From Escherichia coli (GTDB taxonomy: Bacteria > Pseudomonadota > Gammaproteobacteria > Enterobacterales > Enterobacteriaceae), in the NCBI RefSeq assembly GCF_044647545.1, contig NZ_CP172818.1: 64,000 bases of DNA. The stretch is one strand, 5' to 3'. Position 1 is the first letter of the stretch. The number at the start of each line of letters is the position of its first letter. The position numbers are program-made. This document shows positions 39,401 to 41,998 of the stretch, piece after piece.

Positions 39401-41998
39401 TCGCAAAAGAGATTACTGTCACTTTCACATATTTCTGAGTTACCGTATTCTCATGGTTTCTTTTTATTTATAAGGAATACCCCTGTGCGACAACGGACTA
39501 TTGTATGCCCTTTGATTCAAAATGATGGTGCTTATTTGCTGTGTAAAATGGCCGACGATCGCGGCGTTTTCCCCGGTCAATGGGCGCTTTCGGGTGGCGG
39601 CGTAGAGCCTGGCGAACGAATTGAAGAGGCACTACGCCGCGAAATTCGCGAAGAACTGGGAGAACAGCTGCTTTTGACAGAAATCACGCCGTGGACCTTC
39701 AGCGATGATATTCGCACCAAGACGTATGCAGATGGTCGCAAGGAAGAGATTTATATGATTTACCTGATTTTTGACTGCGTTTCTGCCAACCGAGAAGTGA
39801 AAATAAACGAAGAGTTTCAGGACTACGCGTGGGTAAAACCTGAAGATCTAGTGCACTATGATTTGAATGTCGCCACCCGAAAAACGTTACGTTTGAAAGG
39901 TCTTCTGTAACAATGATGACAGCCATTACTGGCTGTCAGATTGAAAATTTAGTGGTTAACGAATTCCCCATCCAGATAAACTTTGCCTTTTTCCACATGC
40001 ATGACTAAACCATCCAGATAATCAGGTTTAAATGTCGCATCACGCTTATCTTTAGCAATATATGTCAGGCAATGATTATGGGTAAAAATAACGATATTTT
40101 TATCAGGTGCTTTGCTTTGTAAGTCCTTAATTGCACTATAAATCTCATTACCGCATTGAAGAAATCGTTTATCTACCGTCAATTTTTTACCCGCTGAAAA
40201 CCAGGTCGCCGACTGAATGGTCCGGACGGTATTACTGGAATAAAGATCGAAATCAGGGATATCAGCACTAAAAGCGTTGCCCAGTTCACGGGCATCCTGG
40301 GTACCTTTGACCGTAATACCTGTTTTATCTGACAAGCATTGATTGGTTGAACGATCGCAACGTTCAGCATGGCGAAACAAAACGACAACCGGGTGCTGCT
40401 GTGCCAGTCTGGCCAGCGTTTTATTGTCGATACGTGGCAAACCATTGCTACTCCAGGCGGCATGAGTACCCAGTCCGGCAATTGCAGCGAGCGCCAGTAA
40501 AATGATGAAATATTTTTTTGACTTCAACGAAGAGCGGCAAAAAGCTAACACGTAAACTCCACCTATAGACAAGCGCAACCAGACAATTACCGTGAAATTG
40601 AGCGACATTTCTGGCGATAATTAGCAGTTGGTGTAATATTAAAAATCCTGCGATGCCGGCAAAATGCCTCAAAATTTTGCCAAATGCAAAGCCTAAATAA
40701 GAAAAAATATAAAAATTTCAATATTTACGTCTAATATTAGTTTCTTAAGGTTAAGTTAATATTCTATCCTTAAAATTTTGCTCCAAATGGCAAAATATAC
40801 ACAACACTCTTTATAGCAAATATAAGTGGACAGGTATTCAATGGCGGAAGGAAAAGCAATGTCAGAATTTTTGCCTTTTTCGCGACCAGCAATGGGCGTG
40901 GAGGAACTCGCTGCAGTTAAAGAGGTTCTCGAATCCGGTTGGATCACAACCGGTCCGAAGAATCAGGCGCTTGAACAAGCCTTTTGCCAGTTGACGGGAA
41001 ATCAGCATGCCATCGCGGTCAGTTCAGCCACCGCCGGAATGCATATCACGCTAATGGCGTTGGAAATTGGCAAGGGCGATGAAGTGATTACGCCTTCCCT
41101 GACCTGGGTTTCAACCCTCAATATGATCTCCTTGTTGGGTGCAACGCCGGTAATGGTGGATGTCGACCGCGATACGCTGATGGTCACGCCTGAAGCGATC
41201 GAGTCAGCCATTACGCCACGCACTAAAGCCATCATTCCGGTGCATTATGCCGGTGCGCCAGCAGATATTGACGCCATTCGCGCCATTGGCGAACGTTACG
41301 GCATCGCAGTTATCGAAGATGCTGCCCATGCCGTCGGTACGTATTACAAAGGGCGACATATTGGCGCAAAAGGTACCGCTATTTTTTCATTTCATGCCAT
41401 TAAAAATATTACCTGTGCTGAAGGTGGCCTGATTGTAACTGATAATGAAAACCTTGCCCGCCAGCTACGGATGCTGAAATTTCACGGTCTGGGTGTCGAT
41501 GCCTATGACAGACAAACCTGGGGCCGTGCACCGCAAGCTGAAGTCTTAACACCGGGCTATAAGTACAATCTGACCGATATTAACGCCGCGATTGCCCTGA
41601 CACAGTTAGCAAAATTAGAGCACCTCAACACCCGTCGGCGCGAAATTGTCCAGCAATATCAGCAAGCACTGGCAGCTCTCCCCTTTCAGCCATTAAGCCT
41701 TCCCGCCTGGCCGCACGTTCACGCCTGGCATCTGTTTATTATTCGTGTCGATGAACAACGTTGTGGTATCAGTCGCGATGCGTTGATGGAAGCGTTAAAA
41801 GAAAGAGGTATTGGTACCGGGTTACATTTCCGCGCCGCTCACACACAAAAATATTATCGCGAGCGTTTTCCCACGCTGTCGTTACCGAATACCGAATGGA
41901 ATAGCGAACGCATCTGTTCGTTGCCGCTGTTCCCGGATATGACCACCGCCGATGCCGACCGCGTCATCACAGCCCTTCAGCAACTCGCAGGACAATAA

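Follow-up and report, generated by a model that had tools for sequence, protein, structure and literature searches.

The closest described relatives of the control element considered here are the PmrA boxes of Salmonella and Klebsiella pneumoniae. Those verified experimentally in Salmonella have the form CTTAAG-N5-xTTAAT, and full-length activated PmrA occupies both half-sites together, head to tail (PMC3973317). In K. pneumoniae, box1 of the pbgP promoter (TCTTAATATTATCCTAAGC) has been footprinted by PmrA (PMC3973317), the structure of a PmrA-DNA complex is known, and the strong footprint runs from -91 to -22 relative to a start just downstream. In Escherichia coli K-12, a single-copy arnB-lacZ fusion goes up 31- to 72-fold with the constitutive basS A20D allele and is similarly activated with basR G53V (PMC8151780), while the PmrA motif has been marked in the arn promoter of an enteropathogenic E. 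coli (EPEC) strain, from which a 60-mer was used for electrophoretic mobility shift assays (EMSA; PMC10729948). Here we describe the corresponding control region, between ais (pmrG) and arnB, in a 64,000-nucleotide stretch of an E. coli chromosome (contig NZ_CP172818.1; hereafter the window) that spans the atoB-yfaP region, gyrA, nrdAB, glp, rhm, nudI, ais, arnBCADTEF, pmrD and men, up to nuoN. With a probability that we put at roughly 0.9, judging from sequence comparison, a direct repeat at 40744-40760 serves as the site that BasR (PmrA) binds in the arnBCADTEF promoter. The feature is an already known, wild-type BasR/PmrA-activated promoter, and brings no new biology to the PmrA regulon.

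A PmrA box between ais and arnB

The divergent genes ais and arnB are separated by a spacer of 307 nt (40552-40858) with 33% GC, against 51.5% for the whole window. On the + strand of this spacer, at 40744-40760, lies CTTAAG-GTTAA-GTTAAT (CTTAAGGTTAAGTTAAT), in which half-site 1 (CTTAAG, 40744-40749) is followed by the spacer GTTAA and half-site 2 (GTTAAT, 40755-40760). As direct half-sites with a 5-bp separation, these fit the form of the verified Salmonella boxes exactly; the G with which half-site 2 begins is permitted by that form, and is one base off the stricter YTTAAK. The exact pattern CTTAAG-N5-GTTAAT has a single match in the 64-kb window and was found in 0 of 100 dinucleotide-preserving shuffles.

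An initial annotation of the window, made from the sequence alone, had reported such a direct repeat in an AT-rich divergent region common to ais and arnB, and had interpreted it as a PmrA box. Both the repeat and its setting are as it described them, and the interpretation is supported by agreement with the published form, by a placement like that of the boxes in footprinted arnB/pbgP promoters from related genera, and by the conservation of position, strand and -10 spacing across genera. Set beside the characterised arnB promoters, a comparison that the annotation had proposed, the window matches the Salmonella form, is alike in register to the K. oxytoca and Raoultella loci that carry the K. 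pneumoniae box, and is identical, at 40723-40782, to the EPEC 60-mer arn probe (PMC10729948). The placement of the repeat about 80 bp before arnB holds for an in-frame ATG at 40842, which lies 81 nt from the end of the box and is apparently the start behind older published arnB coordinates (a longer annotation). It does not hold for the RefSeq ATG at 40859, which lies 98 nt from the box and is preceded by a Shine-Dalgarno-like GGAAGGA.

The predicted arnB -10 hexamer, TAAAAT (40771-40776, +), lies 10 nt past the box. A transcription start 7 nt beyond this hexamer would fall near 40783 (40781-40785, +), giving a predicted 5' leader of ~76 nt (40783-40858) that holds alternative in-frame starts at GTG 40826 and ATG 40842. 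With the -10 hexamer at this position the box would occupy about -39 to -23, in agreement with the limit of the PmrA footprint at -22 on K. pneumoniae pbgP.

Conservation of the box and its spacing to the -10 hexamer

The cross-genus comparison used a scan for ArnB in one genome per species, which yielded 80 loci from genera that include Escherichia, Citrobacter, Enterobacter, Klebsiella, Raoultella, Kosakonia, Pantoea, Erwinia, Dickeya, Serratia and Edwardsiella; Salmonella was absent from the set. For 79 of these loci, 400 nt of upstream sequence were scored for the motif CTTAAK-N5-NYTAAK (11 specified positions), with the mean over 200 shuffles as background. A perfect motif was present on the arnB strand at 53 of the 79 loci, compared to 0.17 in the shuffles and 4 on the opposite strand. 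At a threshold of at least 10 of the 11 positions, the arnB strand was positive at 75 loci, with 5.2 in the shuffles and 40 on the opposite strand. When 63 non-redundant sequences were then stacked ungapped with the box as the anchor, three further columns stood out, counted from the start of the box: +27 was T in 58, +28 was A in 61 and +32 was T in 60 of the 63 sequences. These columns carried 1.0-1.6 bits, while those surrounding them carried ~0.1 bit. They correspond to a conserved TAnnnT exactly 10 nt beyond the box, where the window has TAAAAT, and since they were unused in choosing the sites they provide independent evidence for the -10 hexamer. By computation, the stack independently confirms how the box and the -10 hexamer are arranged.

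Over many genera whose flanking sequences cannot be aligned, the box keeps its position, its strand and its spacing to the -10 hexamer, and the K. oxytoca and Raoultella loci carry TCTTAATATTATCCTAAGC in the same register to the conserved -10. At the Citrobacter amalonaticus locus (L008, about 2290-2490), ~200 inserted nt set the start codon apart from the conserved arnB promoter, leaving the box 310 nt from the ATG; the insertion bears what we take to be a resemblance to an ERIC/IRU repeat element.

Within E. coli, the spacer is part of the core genome, being found in 5,415 of 5,426 complete genomes, always on the chromosome and in a single copy. Of the 5,426 genomes, 1,696 share the 75-nt core promoter (40726-40800) at 100% identity, and nearly all others are 1-2 bases off. 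Differences in this core cluster at 40779, 40781 and 40784, within the 6 nt between the predicted -10 hexamer and the predicted start, so that positions 19-24 nt downstream of the box vary in E. coli and the box does not. In an alignment of the window with K-12, O157:H7 and two other lineages, both the box and TAAAAT were invariant. The K-12 arnB (yfbE/pmrH) promoter is the same locus and is identical to the window in the box and the -10 hexamer; over the 307 nt of its spacer it carries five substitutions (40604, 40623, 40650, 40656 and 40779), none of them in the box. At 40779, 3 nt after the -10 hexamer, the window has T and K-12 has C, and the T is common to the 1,696 genomes, including that of an ST131 strain, and to the EPEC probe. 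A core promoter sequence this common implies that the window holds no unusual change in cis.

Several points weigh against the assignment of the site to BasR. The arnB transcription start is predicted, not mapped, and a published genome-wide start-site table for uninduced K-12 lists no start at the arnB promoter. No BasR footprint, EMSA or chromatin immunoprecipitation on E. coli sequence was found in the literature, in a search that did not reach the primary studies of BasR targets. Descriptions of BasR targets and of an E. coli BasR box are attributed to Hagiwara in 2004 and Ogasawara in 2012, and Wosten and Groisman in 1999 reportedly footprinted the Salmonella pmrG-pbgP spacer. At the level of sequence, the looser consensus YTTAAK-N5-YTTAAK with one mismatch matches the window four times, against 3.1 expected; since this loose form occurs at chance frequency, the significance of the site is carried by its exact match, its position and its conservation. 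Finally, a published model has PmrA blocking this promoter and QseB activating it (PMC10729948).

The frequency of the loose one-mismatch consensus and the 33% GC of the spacer would both suit a repeat that is a chance TTAA-rich match with no regulatory role. Such a chance match is effectively refuted by conservation, on the comparative evidence: besides the absence of the exact pattern from all 100 shuffles, the motif recurs on the same strand at 75 of 79 loci with unalignable flanks, against 5.2 after shuffling, its spacing to a conserved -10 is fixed, and the box stays invariant in E. coli while the sequence 19-24 nt downstream of it varies.

The published model, proposed for one atypical EPEC strain, differs from ours in the roles of the regulators: PmrA at the box would block RNA polymerase, and QseB phosphorylated by PmrB, acting at the same 60-bp region, would be the true arn activator. 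It draws on an EPEC pmrA qseC double mutant with constitutively high arnB and eptA and a colistin minimum inhibitory concentration (MIC) 16-fold higher, and on the shift by phosphorylated QseB of the 60-mer that is identical to the window (PMC10729948); this QseB assay is the only EMSA on the identical 60-mer that was found in the literature consulted. Conversely, constitutive basS and basR alleles raise K-12 arnB-lacZ (31- to 72-fold for basS A20D), indicating activation by BasR (PMC8151780), and a box fixed 10 nt from a conserved -10 hexamer, where it replaces the -35 element, has the geometry of an activator site. The published QseB consensus, in addition, has at least 3 mismatches everywhere in the probe, and its 277 matches in the window compare with 261 expected. 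The best QseB match in the spacer, GCGATAATTAGCAGTT at 40614-40629 (+), has 1 mismatch, and was rejected as a QseB site, lying nearer ais and outside the EMSA probe in a window where matches are at chance level; the K-12 C at 40623 adds one more mismatch to it. If QseB, as a paralogue of PmrA, were to act at this site in cells that lack PmrA, the EPEC data would be explained without repression by PmrA. We consider it improbable that PmrA represses and QseB activates the arnB promoter of the window.

For a BasR-activated promoter, we infer BasR occupancy, the position of the transcription start, and activation rather than repression. With Fe3+ or mild acid as the signal, BasS would phosphorylate BasR; alternatively, with PhoPQ active, PmrD would protect phosphorylated BasR. 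The phosphorylated dimer would bind head-to-tail to the two TTAA-core half-sites, 11 bp apart. The box, at about -39 to -23 and 10 bp upstream of TAAAAT, would stand in for the -35 element, enabling BasR to recruit RNA polymerase to a weak promoter with its start near 40783. The ~76-nt leader and the seven closely packed arn genes that follow would then be transcribed as one unit, and the Arn products would add 4-amino-4-deoxy-L-arabinose (Ara4N) to lipid A, in the polymyxin-resistance pathway. Control of the divergent ais (pmrG) probably also runs through this one box.

The ais side of the spacer

Four of the 80 loci have ais adjoining arnB (Escherichia sp. E1V33, E. albertii, C. amalonaticus and Citrobacter sp. 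R56). When their spacers were aligned with that of the window, two conserved islands were seen: the box with its promoter, and a 32-nt block at 40659-40690, GCAAAATGCCnnAAAn8AAAnGCAAA, given here as the invariant columns of the Escherichia/Citrobacter alignment and without assignment to a strand. The block is linked to ais, being present in 6 of 6 ais-adjoining loci (a count that includes two E. coli genomes) and in 0 of 76 loci without ais, and it lies ~108 nt from the ais start codon in four of the species compared (E. coli counted once). On its minus strand, all five species have TTGCnT-17 nt-CATTTT; in the window these elements are TTGCAT (40689-40684) and CATTTT (40666-40661). Conservation thus points to the block as a candidate ais core promoter, with the box ~98 nt upstream of it.

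A consensus scan of the spacer found no second good PmrA site, which makes shared use of the single box the simplest reading. The distance from block to box is 54 nt in four of the five species and 33 nt, 21 nt shorter, in the fifth; the step from 54 to 33 nt corresponds to two helical turns fewer. It is a tentative and rather doubtful proposal that the block is an undescribed ais promoter/operator driven at long range, in helical phase, by the same PmrA box as arnB. If this were so, a single asymmetric response-regulator site would govern both divergent promoters, each by a different geometry.

Ownership of the box by ais alone can also be considered, since the box lies between two divergent PmrA-regulated genes, pmrG is among the PmrA-activated genes measured in E. 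coli according to the literature, and CTTAAG is itself a palindrome. Against a box that belongs to ais and not to arnB, more than 70 loci without an adjacent ais keep it, oriented and spaced to a -10 hexamer on the arnB side. The related idea of a lesion in cis that makes arn constitutive or silent is countered by the core identical in 1,696 genomes, by 8.5 kb identical to ST648-type genomes and by the lack of an insertion sequence (IS) or indel here. Whether as ownership by ais or as a cis lesion, this explanation is very unlikely. That ais shares the box with arnB is likely, and belongs to the main explanation rather than competing with it.

A different arrangement is seen in E. coli EC5931, a blood isolate (locus L086, 730-1510), in which an IS1 element lies inside the PmrA box at the equivalent of window positions 40744-40752, flanked by a 9-bp target duplication (CTTAAGGTT). 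An intact box on the arnB side abuts the end of IS1, and the ais side retains half-site 1 only; by this IS1, ais has been parted naturally from the complete box. The control region of the window, unlike that of EC5931, contains no IS element or indel.

A number of other candidate features in the spacer were rejected. A second PmrA-like site for ais at 40586-40602 (-), matching 9 of 11 positions, is not kept in other ais-containing species. A sigma-70-like site on the minus strand (TAGACG 40733, TATATT 40706) shows no conservation in E. albertii and lies inside a 21-nt stretch deleted in Escherichia sp. E1V33. An open reading frame of 15 codons on the + strand (40653-40700), which runs over the conserved block, lacks a Shine-Dalgarno sequence, has ACG in place of its ATG in E. 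albertii, and shows no codon pattern in its substitutions. The heptamer GCAAAAT occurs in 4 copies within 138 nt, as two inverted pairs, of which the arnB-side pair is disrupted by the C at 40779 in K-12 and is missing in other Escherichia species, and the ais-side hairpin is not kept in Citrobacter; we treat these repeats as effects of composition plus the conserved block. No Rfam family reached its gathering score anywhere in the window. As a separate observation, the K-12 start-site table mentioned above includes a weak + strand start, antisense within ais and 691 nt before arnB, whose 50-nt upstream sequence matches window 40100-40150 with 1 mismatch (window site 40100-40151, +).

The arn locus, its resistance context and related systems

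To the left of the spacer, ais (39949-40551, -) encodes 200 aa from a GTG start with GGTGGAG upstream (NF011945, 391 bits against a cut-off of 142). To the right, the arn genes follow one another on the + strand in the order B-C-A-D-T-E-F: arnB (40859-41998; 379 aa with no internal stop; NCBIfam NF008658, 741 bits, cut-off 631), arnC (42002-42970; 322 aa; NF007986, 672 bits, cut-off 529), arnA (42970-44952; 660 aa; NF005998, 1257 bits, cut-off 777), arnD (44949-45839; 296 aa; NF011923, 519 bits, cut-off 382), arnT (45839-47491; 550 aa; NF009784, 816 bits, cut-off 567), arnE (47488-47823; 111 aa, identical to K-12; NF011625, 214 bits, cut-off 92) and arnF (47823-48209; 128 aa; NF002816, 139 bits, cut-off 99). 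The connector protein gene pmrD (48203-48469, -; 88 aa with 5 substitutions relative to K-12; NF011994, 166 bits, cut-off 96) is convergent with arnF. All nine proteins score above the curated NCBIfam cut-offs (equivalog for the seven arn) over the full model length. From ais to pmrD, comparison with a K-12 genome gave equal lengths, normal starts and stops, and 0-16 amino-acid substitutions in each protein, with no frameshift, premature stop or insertion in arnBCADTEF.

The genes are closely packed: a 3-nt gap separates arnB from arnC, the arnC/arnA, arnD/arnT and arnE/arnF junctions are 1-nt overlaps (TAATG or TGATG), the arnA/arnD and arnT/arnE junctions are 4-nt overlaps (ATGA), and the convergent arnF and pmrD overlap by 7 nt. 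The initial annotation had reported uninterrupted reading frames in arnBCADTEF and pmrD, which their lack of internal stops and K-12 lengths bear out, and the close inspection for inactivating arn lesions that it had called for found none, with all genes full length. Its translationally coupled junctions are borne out as overlaps and a short gap, a layout from which coupling itself may be expected. Its statement that the whole Ara4N module is intact is correct for the seven full-length arn genes and overstated as to 'whole', with ugd not in the window. The product of ugd (pmrE) is UDP-glucose dehydrogenase, which supplies UDP-glucuronate and is required for the Ara4N precursor.

Many complete genomes, those of strains ST648, MS6198, IMT16316 and ECONIH1 among them, match the whole 8,521-nt ais-to-pmrD stretch at 100% identity; identity is 99% or more in 83 genomes and 95-99% in the rest. 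RefSeq genomes with identical ais-pmrD DNA carry no pseudogene flag on these genes. In E. coli 1532MA and 1532WA (H26/H27), the same query is 100% identical and lies in two pieces over 9,297 nt, from which we deduce an insertion of ~776 nt somewhere in the arn locus.

At the far end of the locus, pmrD and its upstream spacer (48203-48578) show much greater divergence from K-12 than the arnB promoter does (5 of 88 aa and 18 of 109 nt). This spacer holds GGTTTATCTGTTAATCTG, a candidate PhoP site by its resemblance to one, and its differences from K-12 include bases beside the start codon and in the PhoP-box-like GGTTTATCTGTTAA.

The operon lies in a fluoroquinolone-resistant background, as had been suggested: gyrA (11762-14389, -) codes for Leu83 and Asn87 and so carries the well-known pair of quinolone-resistance substitutions, S83L and D87N. 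The chromosomal Ara4N genes and their cis control region are thus present and wild type in a gyrA S83L/D87N strain. Nothing in cis suggests constitutive activation or loss, judging by a core promoter identical in 1,696 genomes and free of cis change; the earlier statement that no sign of constitutive activation is seen in the window stands, as does its placement of basRS, phoPQ and mgrB outside it, given a gene content that runs from atoB-yfaP to nuoN. The genes ugd and eptA are likewise outside. Mutations elsewhere, in basRS, phoPQ or mgrB, could therefore turn on polymyxin resistance, which is not pre-activated at this locus; any polymyxin phenotype would come from outside the window, from basRS, phoPQ, mgrB, eptA, ugd or mcr. 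Apart from these genes, the window differs from the genome of strain 'ST648' by the absence of ~1.88 kb between inaA and glpQ (at about 24548-24555), a stretch in which 'ST648' encodes an MFS transporter and a LysR-family regulator, and by a 25-nt difference near 62385-62399.

Among the described systems, the K. pneumoniae pbgP promoter and the locus in the window both have two direct half-sites 11 bp apart on the arnB strand. The half-sites are swapped, however, being CTTAAT then CCTAAG in Klebsiella and CTTAAG then GTTAAT in the window, and the box lies ~155 nt from the start codon in Klebsiella as opposed to 98 nt here. Klebsiella pbgP also has an extra PhoP box and a second, PhoP-dependent promoter, and ais is not a neighbour of arnB in Klebsiella, unlike in the window. 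In the pbgP (pmrH)-pmrG region of Salmonella enterica, the same divergent pair is found as in the window (ais/pmrG and arnB/pbgP), and the box formula CTTAAG-N5-xTTAAT is that of the window, a likeness that rests on the rule given in PMC3973317 and not on Salmonella sequence. The logic of the Salmonella regulon is also like that of E. coli, with Fe3+ or acid acting via PmrB and low Mg2+ via PhoPQ together with PmrD.

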